Shown: piece by piece, positions 1 to 11,242 of the stretch
How the letters are laid out: the number at the start of each line of letters is the position of its first letter
Numbering within the stretch: the stretch's first letter is position 1
From: a virus
Taxonomy: Duplodnaviria; Heunggongvirae; Uroviricota; Caudoviricetes
Length of the DNA: 11,242 nt
Direction: 5' to 3' (one strand)
IMG/VR virus record: IMGVR_UViG_2657245509_000010
The notes under the pieces: generated by a model
Told to the model about the DNA's origin: nothing
The model's input: only the letters and a program-made list of their open reading frames with translations
Database searches by the model: none
Made by a program: the position numbers and the translations under genes

Positions 1-32
1 CCGTAACGGGCCATAATTCCAGGAAGGACCCG
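1..32 (-). repeat. Terminal 32-bp repeat identical to 11211-11242; reverse complement resembles the cosQ-proximal sequence just upstream of lambda cosN
   Basis: Exact identity of window positions 1-32 and 11211-11242. Reverse complement 'cgggtccttcctggaattatggcccgttacgg' resembles the lambda right-end sequence '...ACGGGTCCTTTCCGGTGATCCGACAGGTTACG' (recalled from memory). Confidence 0.8.
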
Positions 33-65: not shown

Positions 66-347
66 ATGACAGAAGCCGAACTACTGGGATTAATCCGCCG
101 CGTCGCCGGAATCAGCCAGCAGCATGACGAACAGGCCACACAGCCGGACAGCGTGACCGCTGAAAATTATGTGCGTGTTGTAGCGGAAGTGATGCGCCGT
201 GATGGTATAGAACTTAATGGCGTTGATATGCGCAACATACGGAACCGCGTTCTTGAAATGCTGGCCTACAATCGCCGCGTTGAACTGTATCGGGAGAAAG
301 AAAAAATAACGTACCACTGGAAGAAGCCGGAACGGCTGCGGCGGTAA
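66..347 (+). CDS. Hypothetical protein (93 aa)
   Basis: ORF with a good Shine-Dalgarno ('tggggg') 5 nt upstream of the ATG at 66; no recognisable family by eye. Confidence 0.5.
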   Translation: MTEAELLGLIRRVAGISQQHDEQATQPDSVTAENYVRVVAEVMRRDGIELNGVDMRNIRNRVLEMLAYNRRVELYREKEKITYHWKKPERLRR

Positions 348-868: not shown

Positions 869-1031
869 CTGTTTTTAGCACTTTTTGCAGTGTGGGTTGT
901 TTAATTAAATCAATGGGTTGCCTTGCTGTGGTGATAAAAGGACATATTTTATCAATTAGTGTTTTTTGCCGTTTCATAATGTTTCAGATTGTTCATTATA
1001 TTTTTGATTATAAACAGATTTGTGATTTTCC

Positions 1032-1100
1032 TTGTTCCAGCTTGTTTCACGTTGTAGCCCTTTGTGCAACGATCGGTGTAGTTAATGGTGTAGTTAATTG
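1032..1100. repeat. Copy 2 of the ~65-bp direct repeat with tandem GGTGTAGTTAAT x2 (1075-1098), directly abutting the integrase start
   Basis: Direct sequence comparison with 808-868. Confidence 0.55.
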
Positions 1101-1120
1101 TGATGACCGGAATCAAAATT

Positions 1121-2350
1121 ATGAGCAGAGCACTTAACAAACTGAGCGATACACAGCTGAGGAAAATCAACGGCACACCCGCCCAAAAAACAGCCTTTCT
1201 TAATGACGGTGGAAACCTGAGCGTCAGGCATTCAACCAGTGGCCTTTTAACCTGGTATTTCACTTACAGGGCCGGAACGGGAAGGGGGGCACCACCGGAA
1301 CGCATTAAGCTGGGAAATTATCCTGATCTGAGCCTGAAATCAGCCAGGGAAAAAGCCGCCCAGTGTCGCGCATGGCTGGCAGAGGGGAAAAATCCACGTC
1401 ATGAGCTTAATTACACCGTACAGGAAGCGTTAAAGCCGGTAACGGTTGGCGATGCGCTCACCTACTGGCTTGAGTCGTACGCAAAGGAAAACCGCGTGGA
1501 TTATGCCGCCCTGAAAAAGCGCCTTAATAATCACGTAATACAGCACATTGGTGCTATGCCGCTGGATAAATGCGAGCTACGGCACTGGCTGGCCTGTTTT
1601 GACCAGGTGGCAAAGCGAACGCCTGTTACTGCCGGATTCTTGCTACAGACGTGCAAACAGGCGCTTAAGTTCTGCCGGAGGCGGCGCTATGCAATCAGCA
1701 ACGTTCTTGATGATATGAGTGTGGCGGACGTTGGGAAAAAACCGGATATAAGCGAGCGTGTCTTAAGCACCAAAGAACTGGGCGAATTATTGCAGGCACT
1801 GGACAAAAAAATATTCTCCCCCTACTACATCGCGTTAATCCGCCTCCTGATTGTGTTCGGATGCCGGACGGTAGAACTGAGGTTATCGGAGATCAGCGAG
1901 TGGGATTTTACCGAAATGCTCTGGACCGTTCCGAAGGAGCACAGCAAAACGAAGGTAGCCATATTCCGGCCTATACCGGAAGCAATACTGCCGTTCATCA
2001 CGCAGCTGGTGGAGCAGAACAGGCACACGGGCTTATTGCTGGGGGAAGTGAAACAGGAGGCCAGCGTATCGCAGTATGGAAGATTAGCGCACAGGAGGCT
2101 TAATCACCCTCACTGGTCACTGCATGACATCCGGCGCACCTTTACAACCATGCTGAACGATTTAGGCGTTGATCCGCATGTCGTGGAGCAGCTTACAGGC
2201 CACCAGATGCCAGGAATGCAGCGAGTTTATAATCATTCCCGTTATCTGGATGCGAAACGCAATGCGCTGGATATGTGGACGGAGCGGTTAGGGATACTGG
2301 CGGGAACACATGAAAACGTAACCACGCTACCAGTAGCCAGAAGAAAATAA
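1121..2350 (+). CDS. int: Tyrosine site-specific integrase with arm-binding N-terminal domain (P4/PICI-type)
   Basis: N-terminus 'LSDTQLRKINGTPAQKTAFLNDGGNLSV...GNYPDLSLKSAREKAAQCRAWLAEGKNP' fits the arm-DNA-binding domain pattern; C-terminus has 'HDIRRTF' and 'RVYNHSRYL' as in catalytic tyrosine recombinase domains. Start is ambiguous (ATG at 1100, 1103 or 1121); the end is firm. Confidence 0.9.
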   Translation: MSRALNKLSDTQLRKINGTPAQKTAFLNDGGNLSVRHSTSGLLTWYFTYRAGTGRGAPPERIKLGNYPDLSLKSAREKAAQCRAWLAEGKNPRHELNYTVQEALKPVTVGDALTYWLESYAKENRVDYAALKKRLNNHVIQHIGAMPLDKCELRHWLACFDQVAKRTPVTAGFLLQTCKQALKFCRRRRYAISNVLDDMSVADVGKKPDISERVLSTKELGELLQALDKKIFSPYYIALIRLLIVFGCRTVELRLSEISEWDFTEMLWTVPKEHSKTKVAIFRPIPEAILPFITQLVEQNRHTGLLLGEVKQEASVSQYGRLAHRRLNHPHWSLHDIRRTFTTMLNDLGVDPHVVEQLTGHQMPGMQRVYNHSRYLDAKRNALDMWTERLGILAGTHENVTTLPVARRK

Positions 2351-2367
2351 TTTTTTTCGTGTTTTTT

Positions 2368-2383
2368 CAGTATGCGCATACTG
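2368..2383. repeat. Perfect 16-bp palindrome CAGTATGCGCATACTG in the int-alpA intergenic region
   Basis: Read directly. Confidence 0.6.
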
Positions 2384-2404
2384 GATATGCGAACAGATAC
2401 AACG

Positions 2405-2443
2405 TGCAACAATGAGCAACAATGTGGAACAACTACGAACAAG
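2405..2443. repeat. Short tandem direct repeats (GCAACAATG x2, then GAACAAC and GAACAAG); candidate protein-binding array
   Basis: Read directly in the 364-bp int-alpA intergenic region. Confidence 0.5.
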
Positions 2444-2714
2444 AGGCGAAAAAGCGTACGGATTTATAAGTAGCTGATTTTTAATGTGTTACTGGTTTTT
2501 TATACACTAGCGAATCACTCTTTAAAGAGCGAGAAAAAAGGCATGGAACAATATTTTATGCCTTTGTATTAACATGAATTTAAAAGATTTTATTCTTACT
2601 TTTTCATTTTCTGTAAATCATACATCCTCAGTATTTGCCATTCATCACTCTAGCGGGAACAATACGACACAATAAGACACCTGATGACTCTTTAAGAAAC
2701 GAAAGGGGGCAATA

Positions 2715-2903
2715 GTGTTAAGCACTGATCGGTTTATACGTGAAAAAGAATGCGAAAAACTAACCGGCCTTAGCCGTACGTGTCGCTACCGCCTGGAAAA
2801 GGCCGGACAATTCCCATCACGTCGTAAACTTGGCGGTCGTTCCGTTGGCTGGTCTTTATCCGAGGTTCTGGCCTGGAAGGATAGCTGCAAGGCAGTTCAT
2901 TAA
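2715..2903 (+). CDS. alpA: AlpA-family transcriptional regulator / excisionase-like protein (GTG start)
   Basis: 'LTGLSRTCRYRLEKAGQFPSRRKLGGRSVGWSLSEVLAWK' matches the AlpA/phage-excisionase HTH pattern; strong SD 'agggggc' 5 nt upstream of the GTG; located just after int as in Gram-negative PICIs. Confidence 0.85.
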   Translation: MLSTDRFIREKECEKLTGLSRTCRYRLEKAGQFPSRRKLGGRSVGWSLSEVLAWKDSCKAVH

Positions 2904-3049
2904 TCACGCTGGCGGCACACAGCCGCCACACATCAATCATCTGAACACAGAGCTATAACCATGAAGATTGAATATACGCCAGAACGTGGGCGGGGATTCG
3001 TTCGCCCTGGTGAGACTGGAAAACCACAAAATTGGGGTTTTTCAGGCAT

Positions 3050-3078
3050 AAAAAAAGCGGCCCCGAAATGGAGCCGCC
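3050..3078 (-). terminator. Probable rho-independent terminator for minus-strand transcripts (GC stem then T7 on the minus strand)
   Basis: Plus strand 'aaaaaaagcggccccgaaatggagccgc'; on the minus strand a gcggc/gccgc stem is followed by TTTTTTT. Confidence 0.45.
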
Positions 3079-3172
3079 TTTCTGAACAGATAACCCGCTG
3101 CGCCTTATGTGTATATGATCCCAAACATAAGCACGGGGATGATAGCCGCTATCAGGCTGGTGGGCAATGCTA

Positions 3173-3361
3173 TCAGTCTGGTTCAGTTCGTTGCCATACC
3201 TGCAATGGGCGCGTTTCCCTGTACTCTTTAAGGAATTGCTCAAGGGCAAAAGCACATGGCGCGAATCTTTCTGATTCATGCTCTATCTTTCTGCGCCGTC
3301 TTTTCCGTGCCGGTGATAATGTTTTGGTCAATTCTTTATCGGTCATTGTGTTGTCCTGCAT
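3173..3361 (-). CDS. Hypothetical small basic protein, downstream of the RHH gene on the minus strand (start uncertain; possibly ATG at 3346)
   Basis: ORF-track ORF; arginine/lysine-rich segment 'ARKRRRRK'; no strong SD, so low confidence. Confidence 0.3.
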   Translation of the reverse strand: MQDNTMTDKELTKTLSPARKRRRRKIEHESERFAPCAFALEQFLKEYRETRPLQVWQRTEPD

Positions 3362-3403
3362 AGCAATGCGCCGTAATACCTCACACCACGGCGCTGATAG
3401 TTT

Positions 3404-3577
3404 TTATCCTTTGGGTTCTATGCCGCGTTGCTGTAATTCTTTGCGGAGAACGCGTTTAATCCAAGTGGCTAAAGATGTGTCGCCATCGGCCTTAGCAGCT
3501 TCTTCTAGCTGCGCTCTGAAGTCTTCCGGTAATCGCATTTGGTATGGAGGCGAACGTTTTTCTAATGGTGTTGACAT
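3404..3577 (-). CDS. Arc/MetJ-type ribbon-helix-helix transcriptional repressor (57 aa); not in the ORF track
   Basis: Minus-strand translation 'MSTPLEKRSPPYQMRLPEDFRAQLEEAAKADGDTSLATWIKRVLRKELQQRGIEPKG' fits the Arc-family pattern (beta-strand 'YQMRLP', then two helices). Divergent from the rightward operon, with palindromic operators at its 5' end. Confidence 0.75.
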   Translation of the reverse strand: MSTPLEKRSPPYQMRLPEDFRAQLEEAAKADGDTSLATWIKRVLRKELQQRGIEPKG

Positions 3578-3645
3578 GGTAATTACCCTTTATTGCTATA
3601 CCTACATGGTAATTACCATTGTACTTGCCATTACACAAAAATCAA
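3571..3645. promoter_or_regulatory. Divergent control region with two copies of the palindrome GGTAATTACC (3578-3587, 3608-3617) and a minus-strand promoter (-10 TACAAT 3618-3623, -35 TTGATT 3640-3645); a perfect TTGACA on the plus strand at 3571-3576
   Basis: Both palindromes are preceded by 'ACAT' and are 30 bp centre-to-centre. One abuts the RHH start codon and the other abuts the putative -10, the classic autorepressor layout. The plus-strand -10 is weak. Confidence 0.6.
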
Positions 3646-3707
3646 CGCCCCGCAGTGCTGGGAACACATACGGGGCGTCTAACCAACAACGTAAACTAGG
3701 AGCCGTT

Positions 3708-3905
3708 ATGGTTGCCGTAAATCATATACCACACCTTGTACACACACAAACGGCCTTTGTGTGGCGTTTTCTGGCACTGAGTGCCGGAGAATCTCAAATC
3801 ATCCACGTAACCGCCTGGACGGAACGCGAAGCGCGTAACCGTTGCCCGTCCGGTTGTGTTGCTGTATTTGCCGCCCGTATTCGTCAGGAGGTGCGCCATG
3901 ATTAA
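3708..3905 (+). CDS. Icd-like (host cell division inhibitor-like) small protein, 65 aa
   Basis: 'FVWRFLALSAGESQIIHVTAWTEREARNRC...VFAARIRQEV' resembles the Icd-like proteins of enterobacterial P4-like and PICI elements (from memory). RBS 'aggag' 6 nt upstream. It is the true gene inside the chimeric 314-aa track ORF. Confidence 0.6.
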   Translation: MVAVNHIPHLVHTQTAFVWRFLALSAGESQIIHVTAWTEREARNRCPSGCVAVFAARIRQEVRHD

Positions 3906-4110
3906 TCTGTCACTTACTGACCTTAACCGCATTCAGTTTCGTGAGAAATTCACAGGGCAGCTACTGGTCAATGTGGATAAAGGTCGCGTGGTGTGTAATT
4001 ACCACTTACCAGATGAAGCAATTGTCGCCACAAGGGAATCATTACAGGAAATCACAAAACGTGCCGGAATGATTAACACGAATATTCAGGGGATGCTTTA
4101 TGCACAATAA
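3898..4110 (+). CDS. Hypothetical protein (70 aa)
   Basis: ATG overlaps the stop of the upstream gene (translational coupling); no family recognised. Confidence 0.5.
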   Translation: MINLSLTDLNRIQFREKFTGQLLVNVDKGRVVCNYHLPDEAIVATRESLQEITKRAGMINTNIQGMLYAQ

Positions 4111-4564
4111 AACCACACCGGACGCAGCCGCCGAAGCCATCAAAACGCTGATGCACGCGCTGATTGATATTTCTGTTATCGCGGACAGGGCACATAAGCA
4201 CGCCACCAGCGAAACAGAATATGCCGGTGCTTTCGTTCCTCACTCACTGGCTGTCATGCAATTTAGTGCTGATACGGCGCTGAATGAGGCCAAAGCTATC
4301 CTGATTGCTGATTGTGAAAATGGGGGGGTTATGCGTGATGATCGTTTTAATTCCCTGAAACAGGAATTTTCCGGCGTTCCTGATGATGCGGCTGATGCGC
4401 TTTCGTCAATGCCAGAACTTATTAGAGCGGCTTTTTTCTTACTTTCCACGAGAGAATATAAATCAACGGGGCTTGATGTACTGAATATCGCCGCCGATTA
4501 TGCGGAATATGTGGCAGAGGCGCGTTATAGAAGAAAATTTCCTGAGGATGTAAGCCATGCGTGA
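4100..4564 (+). CDS. Hypothetical protein (154 aa)
   Basis: Start overlaps the preceding stop; no recognisable motifs. Confidence 0.6.
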   Translation: MHNKTTPDAAAEAIKTLMHALIDISVIADRAHKHATSETEYAGAFVPHSLAVMQFSADTALNEAKAILIADCENGGVMRDDRFNSLKQEFSGVPDDAADALSSMPELIRAAFFLLSTREYKSTGLDVLNIAADYAEYVAEARYRRKFPEDVSHA

Positions 4565-4790
4565 TATTTACCACCAAACAATAGACCGCGCATTTCTTGC
4601 ACTTTCTCACAGTGAAAACATGATGGAAATATTGCGCATATGGCTTGAAACACTTGGCGACAATGAACGCGACAAACAAAAATCAAGAATTGCCACGGCA
4701 TTAATAACGCTTCTTGAGCCTGTAATAATGGAACTGCAAGAAATAGATCTATTGCACGACAGATATAAAGAACAGCACACCGGAGAATAA
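4557..4790 (+). CDS. Hypothetical protein (77 aa)
   Basis: 8-nt overlap with the upstream gene; SD 'gagga' upstream. Confidence 0.55.
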   Translation: MRDIYHQTIDRAFLALSHSENMMEILRIWLETLGDNERDKQKSRIATALITLLEPVIMELQEIDLLHDRYKEQHTGE

Positions 4791-4795
4791 AAATA

Positions 4796-5095
4796 ATGAA
4801 ACTTAAATATTCTGGCTTAACTGCCAGTGGCAACACTCACCCTAAATTTACGCGCGGTGATATTTACCGCGACCAGTACGGCGGCACGGTAATGATTAAG
4901 GGCGTGGAAGAACGGCGCGTAACCTACCGCCGTGAAGGTTACGAATATGATTGCGTGATGCCTGTTTATCAGTTCCGGCGTGATTTTTCTCTGGTACAGA
5001 CCGCGCCGCATAACGTGCCCACCAGCAACGCCAGGGCACGGGCAAACATCCAGAAGCTGAAAACCATGGTTAACGGATTCAGGGGCAAGAAATGA
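4796..5095 (+). CDS. Hypothetical protein (99 aa)
   Basis: SD 'ggaga' about 10 nt upstream; stop overlaps the start of the replication ATPase gene. Confidence 0.6.
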   Translation: MKLKYSGLTASGNTHPKFTRGDIYRDQYGGTVMIKGVEERRVTYRREGYEYDCVMPVYQFRRDFSLVQTAPHNVPTSNARARANIQKLKTMVNGFRGKK

Positions 5096-6492
5096 AAAGC
5101 GCACCGAACTTAAAAAAACAGCCTTACGACAAGATGACCGAAGTCATTATTTTTGCGGGTAGTGATGCCTGGGCACATGCGAAACAGTGGCAGGAACAGG
5201 ACGGGCGACTGGCTGGCGATAATGTGCCTCCCGTTGTGCTGGCTGATGATCAACTGGATGAACTGGCAGAACTGAGAATCATCGACGAGGGGCGCTATTG
5301 TGTCCGGCTGTACAAGGCAGGCCACATCAGGCCATCAAATATTAATGCCATTGCGCACAAGCTGGCGGCGGCGGGTGTAACTGATGCGAATTATTACCCC
5401 GAAGGGATGCACAGCCATATGCGGGAGAACTGGCGCGAATACCTGGAACGGGTGCGCGGGAAAGAGCCGGCGGAAGAAAAAAACCACCAGCGAAAAACCA
5501 CGCTACCGATGAGCGTTGGATCTACCGGATACGACACGCAACTGGATTACGTGGTTAAGGGGATTATTCCGGCGGTATCGCTATGCAGCATATACGGGGC
5601 TAGCGGGTCCTATAAATCATTCCTTGCCGGATCGTGGGCGTGCCATGTTGCCACTGGTCGCCAGTGGGGAGGCCGCAGGGTTGCACATGGTGCGGTTCTC
5701 TATGTGGTTGGTGAAGGCGGTATAGGTGTTCCGCGTCGTGTAAAAGCCTGGGAGGTTGTGCACGATGAGCAGGTGAAAAATCTGTATCTGGTAAACCGCC
5801 CCATCTTTCCGGCTGCCCCGCTTGATGTTGATGAAATGGTTATCGCTGCCCGTCAGGTGGAGCGGGAAACGGGTAAACCTGTACGCATGATTATTCTGGA
5901 TACGCTGGCGCGTTGCTTTGGTGGGAATGATGAAAATGATTCCCGTGATATGGGGGCGTTTATCCGTGGTTGTGACGAACTGAAACGACGCACAGGGGCC
6001 ACGGTGCTGGTGGTTCACCATTCCGGCAAGGATGAGACGAAAGGCGCGCGCGGTTCCAGTGCATTTCGTGCTTCGCTGGATGCTGAATACCGGATACGCA
6101 GGGAGGACGCAGGAAGCGAAGCGCTGGTTATCTCATGCACCAAAATGAAGGACGCGGAGGAACTCAAAGAAGCCGCATATGACTTACGCGTGGTGGAGCT
6201 TTTTACCGACGCTGACGGTGAATTAATCACGTCGCTGGTGGTGGTGGATGATCCGCGCCCTCCTGTTGAACTGGAGCGCATCGAGGAGGCAGGGAACAAG
6301 ACGGAAAACCATACCGCGCTATGGGGGTGCATCCGTTCACGCACACAGAACGGCGACAAGTGCACGATCCCGCTGTTACGTGATGACATGAAAAAGCTGG
6401 GGTATGAAATGAAAAACTTCCGGCGCTGGCTGTACAAGCTGGAAAAAGATGGGGTTATTCGTATCGATGGGGATGATGTAGCGCCGCTATAA
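5092..6492 (+). CDS. RepA/DnaB-like RecA-fold replication ATPase (satellite replicase-helicase) with a probable C-terminal winged-helix domain
   Basis: P-loop-like 'GASGSYKS', Walker-B-like 'MIILDTLARCFGG', and 'VLVVHHSGKDETKGARGSSAFRASLDAEYRIRRE' typical of RepA-like helicases; C-terminus 'WLYKLEKDGVIRI' looks wHTH-like; an iteron array lies immediately downstream. Confidence 0.8.
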   Translation: MKSAPNLKKQPYDKMTEVIIFAGSDAWAHAKQWQEQDGRLAGDNVPPVVLADDQLDELAELRIIDEGRYCVRLYKAGHIRPSNINAIAHKLAAAGVTDANYYPEGMHSHMRENWREYLERVRGKEPAEEKNHQRKTTLPMSVGSTGYDTQLDYVVKGIIPAVSLCSIYGASGSYKSFLAGSWACHVATGRQWGGRRVAHGAVLYVVGEGGIGVPRRVKAWEVVHDEQVKNLYLVNRPIFPAAPLDVDEMVIAARQVERETGKPVRMIILDTLARCFGGNDENDSRDMGAFIRGCDELKRRTGATVLVVHHSGKDETKGARGSSAFRASLDAEYRIRREDAGSEALVISCTKMKDAEELKEAAYDLRVVELFTDADGELITSLVVVDDPRPPVELERIEEAGNKTENHTALWGCIRSRTQNGDKCTIPLLRDDMKKLGYEMKNFRRWLYKLEKDGVIRIDGDDVAPL

Positions 6493-6684
6493 AAGTGAGG
6501 AGCAAAAGCGAGGGGGATAGAAAGAGGGCCAAAATTAGCCCGCTCTCCCTCACTTTTCGACCTGTATACATCCTCAAAAGTGAGGGGTAAAAAAATACTT
6601 ATGAAACACACACATAGAAAAACCGAAAATCCCAACTGCGACGAAGTGAGACGCTTGAAAAAGTGAGGCGAAAAAGTGAGAGGT
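6491..6684. repeat. Iteron array (at least six copies of AAGTGAG(G/A) in both orientations); putative replication origin
   Basis: Copies at about 6493, 6549 (inverted), 6579, 6643, 6660 and 6674, immediately 3' of the replication ATPase gene. Confidence 0.65.
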
Positions 6685-6692
6685 TGCGAGAA

Positions 6693-6944
6693 ATGACCCA
6701 AAAACGCAGAGACAGAACAGAGCCAAAATATAAAGCGTTAGACATGACTGAGCACACCTTAAAGGTGGCAATCAGAACGATAGACCGCCACACGCGGGAA
6801 GGATACGCGAAGGAACATCCCGACCTGATAAGCGCATTCATGACCACGGCGGCGGCAAACTTTGCCACGCTGACAGAACGGGAGATTGCCGAAGCGGAAC
6901 AGGTAACAACCATCAACGTTAAAACCGGAGAGGTGGAATTATGA
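6693..6944 (+). CDS. Hypothetical protein (83 aa; alternative GTG start at 6663)
   Basis: ATG with SD 'gagagg'; the upstream in-frame extension would overlap the iterons. Confidence 0.5.
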   Translation: MTQKRRDRTEPKYKALDMTEHTLKVAIRTIDRHTREGYAKEHPDLISAFMTTAAANFATLTEREIAEAEQVTTINVKTGEVEL

Positions 6945-7351
6945 CGGCACAGATAGCCGCTTACGGGCGGCTGGTGGACGACCCGCAGGTAAAACAGACC
7001 AGCAAGGGCACACCGATGACGCTGGCGCGTATGGCGGTATCTTTGCCATGCAGCCAGGCACAGGACGGACAGGCGACGTTATGGTTATCGGTCATCGCAT
7101 TTGGCAAACAGGCCGGCTTCCTGGCTAAACATCAAAAAGGCGATGTTGCCAGCGTATCCGGCACGATGCAGGTAAGCCAGTGGACCGGACAGAACGGAGA
7201 AACGCGGCAGGGCTGGCAGGTTATCGCAGACAGCGTAATCAGTGCCCGCGCGGCACGTCCAGGCGGGAACAGACGCAAAACCACAGGCACACAGGGTAAT
7301 CAGCCACCAGCGGGAGGCGATGACCCTTACGGTGATGATATTTCGTTCTGA
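6941..7351 (+). CDS. ssb: Single-stranded DNA-binding protein (SSB-like OB fold with acidic C-terminal tip)
   Basis: Glycine/proline-rich linker and C-terminal 'DDPYGDDISF', comparable to E. coli SSB '...DDDIPF'; OB-fold-like N-terminus; start overlaps the upstream stop. Confidence 0.75.
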   Translation: MTAQIAAYGRLVDDPQVKQTSKGTPMTLARMAVSLPCSQAQDGQATLWLSVIAFGKQAGFLAKHQKGDVASVSGTMQVSQWTGQNGETRQGWQVIADSVISARAARPGGNRRKTTGTQGNQPPAGGDDPYGDDISF

Positions 7352-7361
7352 GGGGGTGACG

Positions 7362-7634
7362 ATGGTACATGACCGCATAGCGGAGGAACTGGAGGCGAAA
7401 GGCTTTTACCGGAGGGCGGCGGCGCGATGGGGTGAAGTCATGCAGCTGGTGGAGACAGACAAGGAACGGCATCACATCACGATGCGACGGCTGGAATGTT
7501 CAAGGAAGGCACAGAGGGCACCGGAGCCGCCGGATAATTTCGGAGACCTGAAAAAGGCAGTCGATCGCACTTATGCCGAAATGGGTATAGATGGTGCTGG
7601 TGATGAAATATGGCGCAATTACCAGGACAGCTAA
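7362..7634 (+). CDS. PerC-family transcriptional regulator-like protein (90 aa)
   Basis: 'AEELEAKGFYRRAAARWGEVM' matches the PerC/Pch hallmark (LExKG-W/Y-RRAA-xW). The true start is the ATG at 7362 with SD 'gaggggg'; the longer track ORF (7242-) would overlap ssb. Confidence 0.6.
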   Translation: MVHDRIAEELEAKGFYRRAAARWGEVMQLVETDKERHHITMRRLECSRKAQRAPEPPDNFGDLKKAVDRTYAEMGIDGAGDEIWRNYQDS

Positions 7635-7640
7635 TCAAAC

Positions 7641-7664
7641 AGCCGGAGAAATCCGGCTTTTTTT
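7641..7664 (+). terminator. Rho-independent terminator (GCCGGA-GAAA-TCCGGC then T7)
   Basis: Stem-loop plus T-run directly after the perC-like stop. Confidence 0.8.
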
Positions 7665-7760
7665 GCACCAGTTGAAACGGTATGGCGCATTACCGGGTTT
7701 TCGTCACGGTCAGGCATAGTTACTATCTGAAACAAACAGACACAACAGAGGAAAAAAACA

Positions 7761-7985
7761 ATGCCGATGAAATTTGATGAGATATTAAAACAGCGTGATA
7801 AATACCATGCTGACAACATGGAGACGATGAGCATCAATGATTACCGCGCATTCCTGGAGACGGGCGCACTGATTGAAAAGGATCAGCATGGTTTTGTGAG
7901 ATGTGCTCTATCCGGTGAAATGCTGGCGGTAAATCCTGAACAGATAGATGCATTGATAGAATTTCTGAAAGAGATCAGAGACTGA
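7761..7985 (+). CDS. Hypothetical protein (74 aa), an isolated transcription unit
   Basis: SD 'gagga' upstream; flanked by terminators at 7641-7664 and 8005-8075. Confidence 0.55.
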   Translation: MPMKFDEILKQRDKYHADNMETMSINDYRAFLETGALIEKDQHGFVRCALSGEMLAVNPEQIDALIEFLKEIRD

Positions 7986-8004
7986 GCCAGCACACAGCAC
8001 ACAT

Positions 8005-8027
8005 AGCCGGAGCAATCCGGCTTTTTT
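8005..8027 (+). terminator. Rho-independent terminator (GCCGGA-GCAA-TCCGGC then T6)
   Basis: Variant of the same hairpin as at 7641 and 10278. Confidence 0.75.
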
Positions 8028-8033
8028 GCGCCC

Positions 8034-8075
8034 AAAAAAAGCCCGATAAGGTCAGAGGGTTCTTATCGGGCTTTT
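8034..8075. terminator. Second hairpin, possibly bidirectional (A7, 10-bp stem GCCCGATAAG/CTTATCGGGC, T4)
   Basis: Read directly; A-run upstream and T-run downstream. Confidence 0.6.
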
Positions 8076-8148
8076 GCATATGAGGTTTTTGGATGCACTG
8101 GCGTTCGTGATCGGGATAATCATTTCATAATTTGCAACATAACTCAAT

Positions 8149-8201
8149 ATCATTGCATAAAATGCAATTCTGATTATAATCAGGACTGGATAAACATCCA
8201 G
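8149..8201 (+). promoter_or_regulatory. Putative promoter of the capsid operon (-35 TTGCAT 8153-8158, 16-bp spacer, -10 TATAAT 8175-8180) embedded in three consecutive palindromes
   Basis: Palindromes ATTGCAT-AAA-ATGCAAT, CTGATTATAATCAG (contains the -10) and CTGGAT-AAAC-ATCCAG; first promoter-like signal after the double terminator. Confidence 0.55.
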
Positions 8202-8236
8202 TTATGATTTTTTTAGTCGAAGAGGAATTTCTTACT

Positions 8237-8443
8237 ATGGCTGAAGAGAAAAAAAGCGGTGTTTCGGTGTACATAAGCCCCGAAATCGTGGAGGTGCTCA
8301 AGCAGCGCCACAAAAAAAACTATGAAGCTGGCGTTGCGGCTGGACTGGATCCGCTGATGACGCCGGAGCCGTCGATAGGTTCACTTGTACGCTCTTATTT
8401 ACTTGCGGCGCTTGGGATGCATAAAAATTATGGGGGTGAATAA
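8237..8443 (+). CDS. Hypothetical protein (68 aa) translationally coupled to the major capsid gene (alternative start 8204)
   Basis: Stop and start overlap as TAATG at 8441-8445; position corresponds to where scaffold or head-accessory genes sit in head operons. Confidence 0.5.
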   Translation: MAEEKKSGVSVYISPEIVEVLKQRHKKNYEAGVAAGLDPLMTPEPSIGSLVRSYLLAALGMHKNYGGE

Positions 8444-9498
8444 TGGCAGGCAAAGCAACGGCACTTAACACTAACCAGCTTTTCATGTACCTGAATCGCG
8501 GGGATATTGCGGATTTTAAATTCAGCCCTCTGTTTACCACGCTGTTTTTCCCGAACGTGGCGACATTCAGCACGCAAAACATCATGCTGGATACCCTGGA
8601 CATTGAAGAAGTCACCATGTCGGCGTTTTGTTCGCCTATGGTGGGTAGCCAGGTTCAGCGCGATAAAGGGTACGAAACCAGCACAATCAAACCTGGCTAC
8701 ATGAAGCCAAAGCACGAAATCGATCCAACGAAAACCATCATGCGCATGGCTGGAGAAGATCCGGCACAGCTTAACGACCCTACCTATCGCCGTATGCGCC
8801 TGATTACTGGCAACATGCGCCGCCAGATAAACGCCATTAAGGCACGCGTGGAATGGCTGGCGGTGAATGCGGTAACGACCGGAAAAAACATCATTGAGGG
8901 CGAAGGCATAGAACGCTATGAAATCGACTGGAAAATACCGGAAAACTGCATCATAGAGCAGGCCAAGGGTAAAAAATGGTCCGAGCAGGATAAAGACATG
9001 CACGACCCAATCTATGACATCGAGCTTTATGCTGATCAGGCTGGTTGCCCCGCAAACGTCATGATTATGGGCGCTGAGGTATGGCGCACATTACGCAGCT
9101 TTAAAAAATTCCGTGAGCTGTACGATCTTTCCCGTGGTTCAGAATCCGCCGCCGAACTGGCCTGTAAAAACCTGGGCGAAGTGGTGAGCTTTAAAGGCTA
9201 TCTTGGTGATCTGGCCCTTATCGTCTATTCCGGCAAATACACTGACAGCGATGGTACCGAAAAATATTTCCTTGAGCCTGATTTGCTGGTCCTGGGTAAC
9301 ACCAACAATAAAGGGCTGGTGGCCTATGGTGCGATAATGGATCAGGAAGCGGTAAGAACGGGCGCAACACAAAACATGTTTTACCCGAAAAACTGGATTG
9401 AGGACGGCGATCCGGCGATTGAGTACGTGCAGACACACAGTGCACCGCAGCCGGTACCGGCAGATATTCGCAAATTTGTTACCGTCAAAATTGGTTAA
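8443..9498 (+). CDS. Major capsid protein, lambda gpE-like (HK97 fold family)
   Basis: Blocks 'KFSPLFTTLFF', 'PGYMKPKHEIDP', 'DPTYRRMRL', 'FRSFK', 'YPKNWIEDGDPAIEY' align with lambda gpE 'KFDPLFLRLFF', 'PGYVKPKHEVNP', 'DPAYRRRRI', 'FRSFK', 'YPKNWVTTGDPAREF' (recalled sequence). 351 aa against about 341 aa for gpE. Confidence 0.9.
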   Translation: MAGKATALNTNQLFMYLNRGDIADFKFSPLFTTLFFPNVATFSTQNIMLDTLDIEEVTMSAFCSPMVGSQVQRDKGYETSTIKPGYMKPKHEIDPTKTIMRMAGEDPAQLNDPTYRRMRLITGNMRRQINAIKARVEWLAVNAVTTGKNIIEGEGIERYEIDWKIPENCIIEQAKGKKWSEQDKDMHDPIYDIELYADQAGCPANVMIMGAEVWRTLRSFKKFRELYDLSRGSESAAELACKNLGEVVSFKGYLGDLALIVYSGKYTDSDGTEKYFLEPDLLVLGNTNNKGLVAYGAIMDQEAVRTGATQNMFYPKNWIEDGDPAIEYVQTHSAPQPVPADIRKFVTVKIG

Positions 9499-9510
9499 CG
9501 GGGGGATTCT

Positions 9511-9846
9511 ATGGACACTCCATACATTGAGTTATTTGCAGGCAGTCAGCAGGTATCCACGACGTTGGTACATTTTGCCGCTGATGCTGGCGTTATTCAG
9601 GAATTTACCCCGCTGATGCTGGCAGACAATGGCGAGTTTAAGCCGTGGGATGGTCAGGAATCTGGCAAGGCTGTTTATCTGACCTCGTACCCTGTGGACA
9701 CGTCAAAGCAGAAATCAGCACAGTGTTACAAGACGGGGATATTCAATATTGCCGCCGTTAACTGGCCTGAGAGCGTCGACACCGATGCGAAAAAATGCGC
9801 CGCCTTTGCGGGTTCCGGCGTATCCGTTCAGCCGCTGGCCCGATAA
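9511..9846 (+). CDS. Head decoration protein, lambda gpD-like
   Basis: 'TPLMLADNGEFKPWDG...KKCAAFAGSGVSVQ' aligns with gpD 'TPLMLDTSSRKLVAWDG...KKRTAFAGTAISIV'; 111 aa against 110 aa. Confidence 0.85.
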   Translation: MDTPYIELFAGSQQVSTTLVHFAADAGVIQEFTPLMLADNGEFKPWDGQESGKAVYLTSYPVDTSKQKSAQCYKTGIFNIAAVNWPESVDTDAKKCAAFAGSGVSVQPLAR

Positions 9847-9858
9847 GCAGGGGGAACG

Positions 9859-10272
9859 ATGGCAACGAATGAAAGCATCATGACGCTACCGCTGGCGAGT
9901 AAATTTAAAGTCGAAGCGCGGGCAATGGCTGACAGAGGTTTATCAACCTATGAGGCCGTATATCAACTAAACAAACTGGAAGAGCAGGACAAGCCGTGCG
10001 CTGATGCGATTATGGCGCTTCATGAGCATAAAGACTATCAGCCGCTGTTGCGTGCAATGGCAAACGTGCCTTGTATCGATGTTGGTACGGCTAAAAGCAT
10101 CCTTAGCATGACCATAGAGCAGGAACGTCCGAAGGTTGCGCCGGAACTTACCGCAGCCTTTGAAAACTTTATGGACATGCACAGCCCGCAAGCCGTATCA
10201 GCTGGCATGGCATACGATGGCAGAAACCAGGGCGATGACGGCGACATCGATCGCATACTGAAAACCATCTGA
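9859..10272 (+). CDS. Hypothetical protein (137 aa) between the decoration gene and cos
   Basis: Good SD 'aggggga'; no resemblance to lambda FI/FII by eye. Confidence 0.6.
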   Translation: MATNESIMTLPLASKFKVEARAMADRGLSTYEAVYQLNKLEEQDKPCADAIMALHEHKDYQPLLRAMANVPCIDVGTAKSILSMTIEQERPKVAPELTAAFENFMDMHSPQAVSAGMAYDGRNQGDDGDIDRILKTI

Positions 10273-10277
10273 GACAA

Positions 10278-10300
10278 GGCCGGAGAAATCCGGCTTTTTT
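10278..10300 (+). terminator. Rho-independent terminator (GCCGGA-GAAA-TCCGGC then T6), third copy of the hairpin family
   Basis: Immediately 5' of cos. Confidence 0.8.
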
Positions 10301-10368
10301 ACGGGTCCTTCCTGGAATTATGGCCCGTTACGGGGCGGCGACCTCGCGGATTTTCGCTATTTATGAGC
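10301..10368 (+). other. cos site (cosQ-cosN), lambda-like; predicted 12-nt cohesive end GGGCGGCGACCT at 10333-10344
   Basis: 'acgggtccttcctggaattatggcccgttacg|gggcggcgacct|cgcggattttcgctatttatga' against lambda 'ACGGGTCCTTTCCGGTGATCCGACAGGTTACG|GGGCGGCGACCT|CGCGGGTTTTCGCTATTTATGA' (from memory); located about 135 bp upstream of the Nu1-like gene. Confidence 0.85.
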
Positions 10369-10438
10369 CTTTTCAGGGTGGTGGTGGTGGTTTTGTTGTT
10401 TGATCTATCTTTATGAATGAAAAGGGAAAGATGCAAGC

Positions 10439-10476
10439 AATACACCAACCTGAAGCAGTAATTAAGTTGGTGTATT
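10439..10476 (+). promoter_or_regulatory. 11-bp inverted repeat AATACACCAAC-N16-GTTGGTGTATT abutting the terS start codon; candidate element-specific cosB R sites or translational control hairpin
   Basis: Read directly; sits where lambda has the inverted R2/R1 Nu1-binding sites before Nu1. Confidence 0.5.
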
Positions 10477-10477
10477 A

Positions 10478-11020
10478 ATGAAATCTCATCTGATGAACAA
10501 AAAAAACATGGCGAAAAGCTGCCGTGTAAGTGCGACAGCGTTCGACAAGTGGGGAGTAACTCCCGTTGAGCGTAAAGGCCGTGAGGCGTTTTATGATGTT
10601 GCCAGCGTGATAGAAAATAGGGTTAACAATGCAATTAGCCAGCTTATAAACGACAAAGGCGAGATTGACGATGATGAACTTTTACGAGTCAGGATCAGAT
10701 TACTGACAGCACAGGCAGAGGCGCAGGAACTTAAAAACGATCGCGATCGCGGTGACGTGATTGATACTGAGTTTTGCCTGTACGCGCTTTCAAAGCTGGC
10801 GAGTCAGATTTCATCAATCATGGACAGCCTCCCGCTTACTATGCAAAGGAGCTTCCCACAGATTACCCCCGCCATGCTGGACAGGCTTAAAAGGGAAGTG
10901 GTTAAAGCCTGTAATGCCAGTGCCAGAGTTGCCGACAACCTCCCACAGATACTGGCTGATTACTTGAAAGAAACAACCGGAAACGTACCGGAAAAGTTGC
11001 TACAGAAGAAAGGCGAGTAA
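10478..11020 (+). CDS. Terminase small subunit, lambda Nu1-like
   Basis: 'LTAQAEAQELKNDRDRGDVIDTEFCLYALSKLASQISSIMDSLPLTMQRSFP' aligns with Nu1 'LTRAQADAQELKNARDSAEVVETAFCTFVLSRIAGEIASILDGLPLSVQRRFP'; N-terminus 'NKKNMAKSCRVSATAFDKW' against 'NKKQLADIFGASIRTIQNW'. 180 aa against 181 aa. Start may be the ATG at 10493. Confidence 0.9.
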   Translation: MKSHLMNKKNMAKSCRVSATAFDKWGVTPVERKGREAFYDVASVIENRVNNAISQLINDKGEIDDDELLRVRIRLLTAQAEAQELKNDRDRGDVIDTEFCLYALSKLASQISSIMDSLPLTMQRSFPQITPAMLDRLKREVVKACNASARVADNLPQILADYLKETTGNVPEKLLQKKGE

Positions 11021-11039
11021 CAGACGCGCAATTATTGAA

Positions 11040-11242
11040 CAAAAATGAGAAAGGATCTGATAATGGCATTTTCTGGCTAAAATGCCTCGTGTCAGATCCT
11101 TTCTTTTTTTAATATTTTCATTGTTAAACAGTCTGTTACAGAGAAGAAGATCGGATCTGACTTTTGCCGGAAAATTCTCATAAACAGATAAAAACCGCGA
11201 GGTCGCCGCCCCGTAACGGGCCATAATTCCAGGAAGGACCCG
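11040..11242 (-). other. Second cos site in inverted orientation (cosN reverse complement at 11200-11211) with a full-length lambda-like cosB arm; cosQ part is the terminal repeat
   Basis: Reverse complement reads 'cgggtccttcctggaattatggcccgttacg|gggcggcgacct|cgcggtttttatctgtttatgagaattttccgg...tcttcttc...', tracking the lambda left end 'CGCGGGTTTTCGCTATTTATGAAAATTTTCCGG...TTCTTCTTCG' further than the 10301 cos does. Confidence 0.8.
11048..11110. terminator. Nested inverted repeat AGAAAGGATCTGA...TCAGATCCTTTCT followed by T7; likely terS terminator and, on the other strand, lambda-like cosB R2/R1-type sites
   Basis: 13-bp arms at 11048-11060 and 11093-11105 with an inner GGCATTTT/AAAATGCC hairpin; the reverse complement aligns with the lambda cosB region 'GAAAAGAAAGGAAACGACAGG...CCTCTGTCGTTTCCTTTCT'. 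Confidence 0.6.

Follow-up and report, generated by a model that had tools for sequence, protein, structure and literature searches.

An 11.2-kb phage satellite of Escherichia coli O157:H7 carries a pair of facing lambda-type cos sites with a small terminase gene (terS) between them, and we think it probable that the region is a dual-specificity packaging module whose inverted orientation would secure complete units from either cos. Two functional cos sites have been known in the EcCICFT073 family of satellites since 2018–2019, and the O157 island is a further member of that family, with terS in place of rpp. EcCICFT073-family satellites hijack lambdoid phages and carry virulence and defence genes between enteric bacteria.

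A circular satellite with facing cos sites

The window, by which we mean the whole 11,242-nt stretch of DNA analysed here, is 100% identical to an island lying between roxA and phoQ in E. coli O157:H7, and is evidently the excised circular form of an 11.2-kb EcCICFT073-family phage satellite (PICI). The roxA/phoQ island with facing cos sites is present in 219 O157:H7 records at ≥99% identity, all of them complete chromosomes, most of which were closed with long reads. Since the first 32 bases of the window equal its last 32, the window represents a unit of 11,210 bp in circularly permuted form; positions 1–949 correspond to 14272–15220 of the chromosomal locus L001 and positions 940–11242 to 4001–14303 of the same locus. 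A circular form of this kind is compatible with excision and is no proof of it. The features of a PICI are present, namely int, an HTH regulator, a RepA-family helicase and SSB, together with the length of 11,210 bp and the roxA/phoQ site. The capsid block encodes a gpE-like major capsid protein (PF03864, E = 5.5e-50), a gpD-like decoration protein (PF02924, E = 5e-18) and a third product of 137 aa resembling the C-terminal (scaffold) end of a head maturation protease. Portal and TerL were absent from the ORFs, annotations and Pfam and phrog matches of the island, its head genes being only the gpE-, gpD- and scaffold-like ones, whereas a cf-PICI such as EcCIEDL933 has a full head module including portal, protease, head-tail adaptors and large terminase. 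That the island is a deposited phage was ruled out, as a megablast of the whole window against the phage collection gave only cos matches of 45–57 nt.

The cosQ segments and cosN of the two sites lie in a perfect inverted repeat of 48 bp, far beyond chance in 11 kb. The preliminary description had its length right and its left arm off by one, the arm 10301–10348 given there failing an exact comparison. Beyond the exact 48 bp the similarity runs on for 28 further bases with 7 mismatches, and not for about 18 bp as had been stated, giving an extended repeat of 76 nt (10302–10377 against 11167–11242) with 69/76 matches (91%). The 12-nt lambda cohesive-end sequence was correctly placed in both copies: GGGCGGCGACCT occurs once per strand, each time with GTTACG on its 5′ side and CGCGG on its 3′ side. 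Alignment with lambda and phage 21 puts cosQ CGGGTCCTTCC, defined after supplementary Fig. S5 of PMC6092414, in both copies at the lambda distance from cosN. The inverted pair around terS proposed in the same description is borne out as well, for cos1 and cos2 both read as complete lambda-type sites (cosQ-cosN-cosB), with cosQ outside, cosB inside and the Phage_Nu1 ORF in between (Table 1).

Table 1. Features of the packaging region and of the ends of the window (positions in the 11,242-nt window)
Feature	Position	Strand	Remark
Circle-closing overlap	1..32	.	copy of 11211-11242
93-aa ORF	66..347	+	phrog_1561, E = 3e-58; conserved; adjoins cos2 in every relative
att core, 10 bp	940..949	.	attP junction of the excised, circularised island
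Capsid block, 5′ of cos1	8443..10272	+	PF03864, PF02924, phrog_29, phrog_49, phrog_53
Hairpin and T-run GGCCGGAGAAATCCGGCTTTTTT	10278..10300	+	capsid gene block ends here; directly abuts cos1
Left 48-bp repeat arm	10302..10349	+	cosQ segment, cosN and 5 bases
cos1 cosQ-containing segment, CGGGTCCTTCC...GTTACG	10302..10332	+	type B variant
cosN of cos1, GGGCGGCGACCT	10333..10344	+	12-nt lambda cohesive-end sequence
cos1 cosB-like arm	10345..10477	+	I2-like stretch 10345-10367, R3-like box, palindrome
terS, 180-aa Nu1-family small terminase	10478..11020	+	Pfam, phrog, RefSeq annotation
R1 box of cos2 cosB, TCAGATCCTTTCT	11048..11060	-	predicted from sequence
R2 box of cos2 cosB, AAAGGATCTGACA on cos2 strand	11090..11102	-	predicted from sequence
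R3 box of cos2 cosB, GTCAGATCCGATCTTCTTC	11143..11161	-	predicted from sequence
cos2 I2-like stretch, CGCGGTTTTTATCTGTTTATGAG	11177..11199	-	87.7% match to phage 21 cos region
Right 48-bp repeat arm	11195..11242	-	exact reverse complement of left arm
cosN of cos2, reverse complement of GGGCGGCGACCT	11200..11211	-	12-nt cohesive end
cos2 cosQ-containing segment, type B	11212..11242	-	identical to window 2-32

The contig break coincides with the outer boundary of the right repeat arm, outside which similarity ends (window position 33 onwards against 10301 downwards). The start of the window lies one base from the nick of cosN2, and its reading as a virion DNA end was rejected on two grounds: the 32-bp overlap reaches precisely to the outer boundary of the repeat, as fits an assembly-graph break, and from a filled-in cohesive end one would expect an overlap of 12 bp, at 11200–11211.

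An inverted cos pair had been described as no normal feature, which is true of cos phages and not of this satellite family. Phages have a single cos followed by terS and terL along the direction of packaging, whereas in the island cos2 is directed into terS from its 3′ end. The sites face inward in every one of the 28 two-cos loci that were fetched (22 distinct, EcCICFT073 included), with 0 direct and 0 divergent, and the inward-facing layout is to all appearance conserved and ancestral for the family. Common descent alone could be the cause of this invariance, since inversion between inverted repeats keeps the sites facing inward. The GGCCGGAGAAATCCGGCTTTTTT hairpin forms the capsid-side flank of all relatives. 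The type B cosQ is found in relatives only on the right-hand cos and in the O157 island also on the left, and the shared perfect repeat is only 24–37 bp in the other relatives compared; the 48-bp identity appears restricted to a small number of lineages whose left cosQ was converted to the right-hand type.

Unlike cosB arms and a mosaic TerS

The two sites are evidently not equivalent copies, as their cosB arms differ in predicted specificity. The arm of cos1 looks like an N15-type cosB, to which TerS would bind. Its only R-like box, the R3-like GGTGGTGGTGGTT at 10380–10392, lies at bp 48–60 from the nick, as does R3 of phage N15 (PMC9026076), whose cosB has a single R3 (Feiss et al. 2015, as reviewed in PMC9026076). 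Both cosB arms are short with a G/T-rich R3, which in N15 reads GAGGTTGTTGTTT. The arms differ in that the one in the island is longer and has an extra palindrome, and the cohesive end of N15, beginning with the 12 bases GGGCGGCGTCCG, differs from that of lambda by the N15 record's own note. This palindrome (ATACACCAACC / GGTTGGTGTAT, at about 10440–10475, just 5′ of terS) was rejected as a conserved TerS site and is kept as a candidate only, because it is degraded in two flipped islands. The N15-type arm accompanies terS in 4/4 terS islands. Such arms are also found in islands lacking terS (L008, L009), so a division into "private" and "helper-type" cos sites is not clean. A consensus scan of the cos1 arm gave no convincing promoter for terS; the gene is intact in both orientations of the cassette, which suggests expression from inside it.

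The TerS product matches Phage_Nu1 (PF07471; E = 3e-23, 82.6 bits against a cut-off of 30) and phrog_57 (E = 8e-53), carries the RefSeq label terminase small subunit, and can be aligned end to end with lambda Nu1, 21 gp1 and N15 gp1. It is apparently a mosaic, with a DNA-binding domain like that of N15 gp1 joined to a middle and C-terminal part resembling PhiR5_1. Its N-terminal part is 59.6% identical to N15 gp1 and 28–37% to lambda, 21 and PhiR5_1, its C-terminal part is 56% identical to PhiR5_1, and the middle and C-terminal parts are nearer to PhiR5_1 than to N15. A sequence search against solved structures returned nothing meaningful for TerS (best E = 0.035, an ankyrin repeat design), and local BLASTP found no match to Rpp in either the N-terminal or the C-terminal parts.

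The cos2 arm follows another plan, that of lambda, 21, phi80 and PhiR5_1 (cosQ-cosN-I2-R3-I1-R2-R1, then Nu1), with an identical cosN and a similar cosQ and I2 region. Its three R boxes stand in lambda order, orientation and spacing, R2 being opposite to R3 and R1, and the R-box core is CAGATCC, where lambda has CGTTTCC and phage 21 has TGTCGG. These boxes and their spacing match the cosB of one group of lambdoid (pro)phages, as judged from alignment. Against the cos of a phage contig of ~50 kb with the CAGATCC type, the R boxes are identical at 43/45 positions and the spacers at 44/69, with 0 gaps, and this difference between boxes and spacers, together with the exact spacing, is the pattern expected under selection. 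The cos-terS region of the CAGATCC phage is found at ≥80% query coverage in 223/5,426 E. coli genomes. O157:H7 genomes match it over just 46% of the query, and the one resident O157:H7 prophage inspected has a cosB of 21-type, not CAGATCC, so a matching helper is not evident in O157:H7. At least 87 phage-like loci with a single cos share the box type of CFT073 cos2, and the distal arm of IHE3034 is instead like the cosB of PhiR5_1/21. There are at least four types of cos arm in the family, three of which match cosB types of real phages.

EcCICFT073 shares with the O157 island the roxA/phoQ site, the facing lambda-type cos sites around a small packaging-specificity gene, a right-hand cosQ and flank of identical type, and the gene order int, HTH regulator, Icd-like, replication genes, SSB, PerC, gpE-like, gpD-like, 137-aa protein, cassette and 93-aa ORF. 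The trait of two cos sites with a cosB unlike that of the helper is found in the O157 island too. The two differ in the cassette gene (Rpp of 144 aa in EcCICFT073, a full-length Nu1-family TerS of 180 aa in the O157 island), in replication (a primase-family protein against a RepA-type helicase), in the cos arms (Rpp-type and CCGGACATG-type against N15-type and CAGATCC-type) and in the exact repeat, which is 25 bp in EcCICFT073 and 48 bp in the O157 island, where the left cosQ is converted to the right-hand type. The searched text and supplements of the 2018–2019 publications make no mention of the orientation of the EcCICFT073 cos sites; in CFT073 we find cos1 and cos2 inverted around rpp, both matching the published sequences. 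EcCIIHE3034 resembles the O157 island in its capsid block, its terS (97.6% identical), its proximal arm (97%), its orientation and the 867 bp between both cosN, and differs in being integrated next to clpS and in a distal cosB arm of PhiR5_1/21-type that is 65% alike. Family members encoding TerS were already recognised in 2018, when transfer of two such islands, IHE3034 and 18098, went undetected (PMC6092414). The principle of redirecting helper terminase to satellite DNA is also that of the SaPIs, by TerS piracy in pac SaPIs and in cos SaPIs such as SaPIbov5 and SaPIbov4, although in another host and with another terminase family; two putative cos sites have been reported for SaPIbov4 (PMC6092414).

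Packaging from either cos

If the region is indeed a module of dual specificity, cos1 would be the satellite's own signal, read by its TerS, whose PhiR5_1-like C-terminal part would recruit the large terminase of the helper, and cos2 would be a helper-type signal directly usable by a matching helper terminase. With an own signal and a helper-type signal, packaging of the satellite need not be confined to a single kind of terminase, and the O157 island appears to combine a satellite TerS and a copied helper cos in one module. Lambda-type packaging is unidirectional and terminates only at a cos that is met cosQ-first, and a motor started at one cos would therefore ignore the inverted one. A packaging run begun at cos1 or cos2 would stop at the next copy of that cos, one unit length on in the concatemer, and each particle would thus receive a full unit with the cassette. 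From lambda genetics, loss or duplication of the intervening segment would be expected if both cos sites pointed the same way.

The suggestion in the preliminary description that both sites are used draws its support from homology. In EcCICFT073, cos1 and cos2 are each functional for transfer, which is lost when both are deleted, and it is cos1 that depends on Rpp (PMC6092414, PMC6739421). The cos2 of EcCICFT073 supports plasmid transfer, and its deletion increased transfer by lambda and phi80 (PMC6092414), from which it follows that a second cos can be costly with some helpers.

This last result also fits the view that cos2 is a functionless leftover from the entry of a terS-cos or rpp-cos cassette, by cosN recombination with a phage or island, which is harmless because inverted and hence tolerated. 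The view agrees too with the lack of an evident CAGATCC-type helper in O157:H7 and with the position of the arm-exchange breakpoints at cosN. We nevertheless consider it unlikely, if deserving of serious weight. Against it stand the pattern of the cos2 boxes, spacers and spacing, which is that expected under selection, and the two complete cos sites kept in 28/28 islands with their several arm types, three of them those of real phages; in EcCICFT073, moreover, cos2 both supports plasmid transfer and, as the sole cos, still permits transfer of the island.

It could be argued that cos2 is instead a device of interference, a multicopy cos of helper type that titrates terminase or provokes cutting or opposed packaging, and so lowers helper yield. 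Its mimicry of a helper cosB would serve this end, improved transfer of the satellite after cos2 deletion would be expected if cos2 has another, costly purpose, and satellites of the family do block helper packaging through Rpp (PMC6739421). Rpp already explains the known interference of the family, however, and a terminase engaging cos2 would package the satellite as well, which makes interference hard to tell from piracy; we regard this explanation as improbable.

Inversion and arm exchange across the family

Inversion of the terS cassette, raised in the preliminary description, is seen across the family and not in the O157 island. The terS-type cassette is flipped in 5 genomes and not in 488, the rpp-type cassette in 15 and not in 68, and the flipped cassettes were confirmed by annotation. 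Among the 217 records of O157-type islands at ≥99% identity, 0 were flipped; the flips come only from other lineages, three of the flipped terS records having 91.5–91.6% and two 90.3% identity to the query, and all 15 flipped rpp records 97.7%. The predicted swapping of cosB arms between the sides is also found. In the flipped terS islands the cosQ stays with its flank and the cosB arms change sides, with the breakpoints of exchange at cosN. There are also what look like signs of gene conversion: the islands of O157 and KGu016 have a type B cosQ at each of their two cos sites, and IHE3034 carries a chimeric cosQ. The short inverted repeat at cosN has evidently acted as a substrate for recombination, by which, judging from these alignments, the cassette has been inverted and cosB arms exchanged repeatedly across the family. 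The converted and chimeric cosQ sequences favour homologous recombination or gene conversion, and cutting by terminase followed by religation was rejected as the main route of inversion.

Both orientations thus exist in nature, even in near-isogenic islands with an identical Rpp protein, and terS is undamaged in either, as would suit a programmed switch in which frequent flips within a population alter terS expression or the pairing of cosB with flank. Such a switch is very unlikely. No invertase is present among the ORFs and annotations, the sole recombinase being an att-specific tyrosine integrase, the repeat is a conserved cos core with the gene-conversion footprints typical of homologous recombination, and the orientations come in whole groups of records of the same identity and not scattered over single genomes, with none flipped among the O157-type islands. 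That the inverted copy is an assembly artefact, a fold-back or collapsed circular junction of the kind the preliminary description allowed for, can be dismissed: the break at the repeat edge and the 32-bp terminal overlap do mean that assembly from short k-mers alone could not have resolved the orientation of the cassette, but an identical arrangement (100%) is present in more than 200 complete O157:H7 chromosomes, beyond the 48 bp the arms run into different cosB types, and the layout is kept in 22 distinct sequences.

A more speculative idea, to which we would give only a small chance, is that the facing cos pair makes the packaging-specificity gene a cassette mobilised by terminase, through cohesive-end cassette exchange. 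Cutting at both cosN would free a fragment of ~0.87 kb with a 5′-GGGCGGCGACCT overhang at both ends, and the remaining island would have the complementary overhang at both of its ends. With such matching overhangs the fragment could be ligated back either way round, or into the cos pair of another co-resident island or phage, without homologous recombination. If true, such exchange would add a new way of shuffling modules and could explain the free reassortment of cosB arms, terS, rpp and orientation in the family.

The range of phages able to move an island depends on the cos sites it has, and the retention of a second cos in this family had lacked an explanation since cos2 of EcCICFT073 turned out to be dispensable with lambda and phi80. 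Packaging of dual specificity would offer an explanation, one cos serving the satellite's TerS or Rpp and the other copying the cosB of a particular group of phages. Typing both arms should aid the prediction of helper range, including that of the O157:H7 island, for which there is no known helper. The natural flips and arm swaps show recombination at cosN to be a means by which packaging specificity changes, which may also be of relevance to engineered PICI-based delivery vehicles.

An island of the EcCICFT073 family

Complete E. coli O157:H7 chromosomes carry an island that matches the window at 100% identity (219 records at at least 99% identity), and at least 80% of the window is covered in 364 genomes. 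In strain EC4115 this island lies between roxA and phoQ and is annotated with a tyrosine integrase, an HTH regulator, Icd-like proteins, a RepA-family helicase, SSB, PerC, a major capsid protein, a head decoration protein, a 137-aa protein, a terminase small subunit and a 93-aa protein. The island's right end corresponds to window bases 1-949 and the remainder to 940-11242; these two parts share a 10-bp att core (940-949), which makes the window the excised, circularised form of a chromosomal island. The top match among E. coli genomes, NCCP 13894 (NZ_CM167691.1), spans 12,159 bp as against ~11,220 bp with a higher summed score, which suggests a partial duplication or insertion in that copy.

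EcCICFT073 is the best-studied Gram-negative PICI. Our island is a satellite of its family with TerS in place of Rpp: the roxA/phoQ site (in CFT073) and the gene order are the same, but EcCICFT073 has rpp (144 aa) where the island has terS. That members of this family have two cos sites, and that these function, is known from published work. EcCICFT073 carries two, each of which confers phage-mediated transfer on a plasmid; deletion of cos1 lowers island transfer, deletion of cos2 raises it and the double deletion abolishes it (Fillol-Salom et al., PMC6092414). The Rpp-TerS complex recognises cos1 (PMC6739421). Family members with TerS were on record from 2018, and those tested at that time were not mobilised (PMC6092414).

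We located the published cos sequences in the CFT073 locus (L011), where they flank rpp, cos1 at 15559 (plus strand) and cos2 at 16298 (minus strand). Among all fetched loci with two cosN within 3 kb (28 loci, 22 distinct sequences), cosB points inward and cosQ outward in 28/28, with no direct and no divergent pair. Inverted cos pairs, which the preliminary description called no normal feature of cos phages or cosmids, are thus the conserved layout of this satellite family. Between the sites lies terS forward (O157, IHE3034), terS reversed (2014C-4587, PM4-5), rpp (CFT073, LR-58-2) or no gene (CEA601S), and the arms are of N15, Rpp, CAGATCC, PhiR5_1/21-like or CCGGACATG type. The words 'inverted' and 'orientation' are absent from the main text and searched supplements of PMC6092414 and PMC6739421, and the Murialdo and Feiss review (PMC9026076) mentions neither cos2 nor 'inverted', using 'orientation' for the recognition helix only. 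In the literature searched we found no explicit statement that the two cos are inverted in all family members, and nothing on a second arm copying the cosB of identifiable phage groups or on a cassette naturally in both orientations with reassorted arms.

Features of the island and of one resident prophage
Feature	Position	Strand	Remarks
cosN GGGCGGCGACCT (cos1)	10333-10344	+	single occurrence on this strand
cosN GGGCGGCGACCT (cos2)	11200-11211	-	single occurrence on this strand
R3-like GGTGGTGGTGGTT of cos1	10380-10392	+	bp 48-60 from nick
terS ORF, 180 aa	10478-11020	+	Nu1 family: PF07471 82.6 bits (cut-off 30); phrog_57 E=8e-53
cos2 R3	11143-11161	-	lambda-like box
cos2 R2	11090-11102	-	lambda-like box
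cos2 R1	11048-11060	-	lambda-like box
Direct repeats, two of 75 nt	792-866, 1025-1099		76% alike; flank att core; each ends in GGTGTAGTTAATGGTGTAGT
AAAAGTGAGG-rich repeats	6491-6534, 6659-6702		directly past helicase gene (5092-6492)
PerC-family regulator	7242-7634		PF06069 E=1e-42
Hairpin + T-run GCCGGAG[A/C]AATCCGGCTTTTTT, three copies	7637-7666, 8001-8030, 10274-10303		island right half
Major capsid protein, gpE-like	within 8443-10272		PF03864 E=5.5e-50
Decoration protein, gpD-like	within 8443-10272		PF02924 E=5e-18
137-aa protein	within 8443-10272		matches C-terminal, scaffold end of head maturation protease family phrog_53, E=5e-9
Resident lambdoid prophage, O157:H7 NE 1169-1	L254 1559-2291		21-type cosB

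The 75-nt repeats, each matched by an inverted partner shortly downstream of int (2398-2444; repeat pairs I3, I5), are probably arm-type binding sites for the integrase or an excision factor. In satellites of this kind the replication origin usually lies directly after the helicase gene, where the island has its AAAAGTGAGG-rich repeats. A second PerC-family gene adjoins the cos of the O157:H7 lambdoid prophage (L254 739-1053). The third hairpin copy closes the capsid block and adjoins cos1. CFT073 has the same three capsid-block genes, contrary to the 2018 paper, in which EcCICFT073 was said to lack capsid morphogenesis genes and to be packaged in full-sized capsids (PMC6092414); their products may remodel the capsid.

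Two cos sites with different cosB types

The module holds two complete cos sites of different cosB types, one accompanied by an N15-like TerS and the other matching a phage group. As first described, both copies contain the cohesive-end sequence GGGCGGCGACCT; both also have a cosQ CGGGTCCTTCC, a GTTACG|GGGCGGCGACCT|CGCGG core and an I2-like stretch, as aligned with lambda and phage 21, past which they diverge.

No lambda-type R boxes are present in cos1. The single R3 of phage N15 lies precisely at bp 48-60 (Murialdo and Feiss 2022, PMC9026076) and reads GAGGTTGTTGTTT in the N15 sequence; the R3-like box of cos1 occupies the identical position. Residues 1-52 of the island TerS are 59.6% identical to N15 gp1, compared with 28-37% to lambda, 21 and PhiR5_1, while PhiR5_1 is nearest for the middle and C-terminal parts (66% and 56%); by these identities the protein is a mosaic. 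The cos1 arm adjoins the terS 5' end in all four terS islands compared, and cos1 would be the site that the island's own TerS reads. N15-type arms are also present in islands without terS.

The three R boxes of cos2, on the minus strand, are ordered, oriented relative to one another and spaced as R3, R2 and R1 are in lambda, but their core is CAGATCC rather than CGTTTCC (lambda) or TGTCGG (21). A scan of viral contigs for CAGATCC boxes found ~20 single-cos loci, several on 30-50 kb contigs, with the same boxes between cosN and a 182-aa Nu1-family terS. Against one such phage locus, gapless from cosN to R1, the R boxes of cos2 are 43/45 identical and the spacers just 44/69, so cos2 looks like a maintained copy of that phage group's cosB. 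This phage's cos-terS region occurs, at at least 80% query coverage, in 223 of 5,426 E. coli genomes, and the one O157 prophage inspected (L254) has a 21-type cosB. The TerS of the L254 prophage is a mosaic as well, with 83% overall identity to lambda Nu1 and a 21-like N-terminus; TerS domain shuffling is thus common in potential helpers also.

The CCGGACATG type, which is the CFT073 cos2 arm, is shared by at least 87 phage-like loci with a single cos. The EcCICFT073 cos2 boxes, CCATGTCCGG / CCGGACATG in three copies, are common to many single-cos, phage-like contigs (IMG/VR loci L192, L135 and ~85 more); in the single contig read through, L192, cosB is followed by a gene that has a GTG start and encodes a helix-turn-helix-like N-terminus, ATQTEVARHLSLTDRQLRRL, that does not resemble Nu1. 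This cosB group may be the natural helper type for EcCICFT073 cos2.

Inversion of the cassette and exchange of arms

The two sites share an exact 48-bp inverted repeat (10302-10349 and 11195-11242), as previously described in length and right arm, with the left arm shifted by one base; the arms remain alike out to 76 nt (69/76 matches). Bases 1-32 of the window copy its last 32 (11211-11242), making it a circularly permuted 11,210-bp unit with its break at the right arm's outer edge. Contig ends on the outer edge of an inverted repeat are what an assembly-graph branch would give, and with the break at the repeat this assembly by itself does not fix the cassette's orientation. The possibility of an assembly artefact is ruled out by the same arrangement, at 100% identity, in complete O157:H7 chromosomes, of whose island the window is the excised circle.

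Inversion of the cassette had been proposed, together with a swap of the cosB arms between sides, and relatives show both. A query with 10302-11242 reversed and its natural flanks kept aligned in one piece, at 100% coverage, with five complete genomes (90-92% identity), as against 488 for the natural arrangement; for two of these five, annotation confirms that terS and the capsid genes are on opposite strands. The distal arms of these two islands differ (64% alike), yet each is almost identical (96.1% and 99.4%) to an arm found in an unflipped island, so there must have been either two or more events or a single one with a later arm exchange. With a query built likewise for the CFT073 module, 15 genomes are flipped and 68 natural. 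KGu016 (L255 2501-3850) is near-isogenic with CFT073 (L011 15259-16609) at the same roxA/phoQ site, with the rpp cassette inverted and the identical Rpp protein (WP_000565609.1) encoded on the other strand; cassette and right flank are 100% identical, and all differences fall in the left flank (25) and left cosQ segment (8), the latter being of right-hand type in KGu016.

In the flipped terS islands cosQ remains with the flank and cosB moves, which places the exchange point within the shared cosN core. The right-hand cosQ type stands on both sides in the O157 and KGu016 islands, the IHE3034 cosQ is chimeric, and the exact repeat in the relatives compared reaches 24-37 bp at most; on this comparison, the island's 48-bp perfect repeat is a homogenised state of the arms. 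Together these are signs of homologous recombination and gene conversion acting between the arms. A programmed invertible switch is unlikely, since we found no flipped copy among O157-type islands at at least 99% identity and the island encodes no invertase.

How the module may work

Lambda DNA is packaged from cosN towards cosB, and termination occurs solely at a cos met cosQ-first; Feiss and colleagues reportedly worked on cosQ and polar termination, and Emmons on early cos-duplication phages. A cos pair in direct orientation yields chromosomes without the intervening segment or with it duplicated. Arguing from lambda biology, a run from either of two facing sites would ignore the other and end at its own copy one unit on, and the facing orientation would thereby avoid loss or duplication of the segment between them. 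Common descent alone could also account for the invariant layout. It seems rather improbable that terminase cuts both cos to release a cassette with two identical cohesive ends, which could be religated either way or into another element.

We know of no helper for the island. We infer that the module offers the satellite two terminase entry points: at cos1, the island TerS would read the site and hand the DNA to a helper TerL, and at cos2 a helper of matching specificity would use the site directly.
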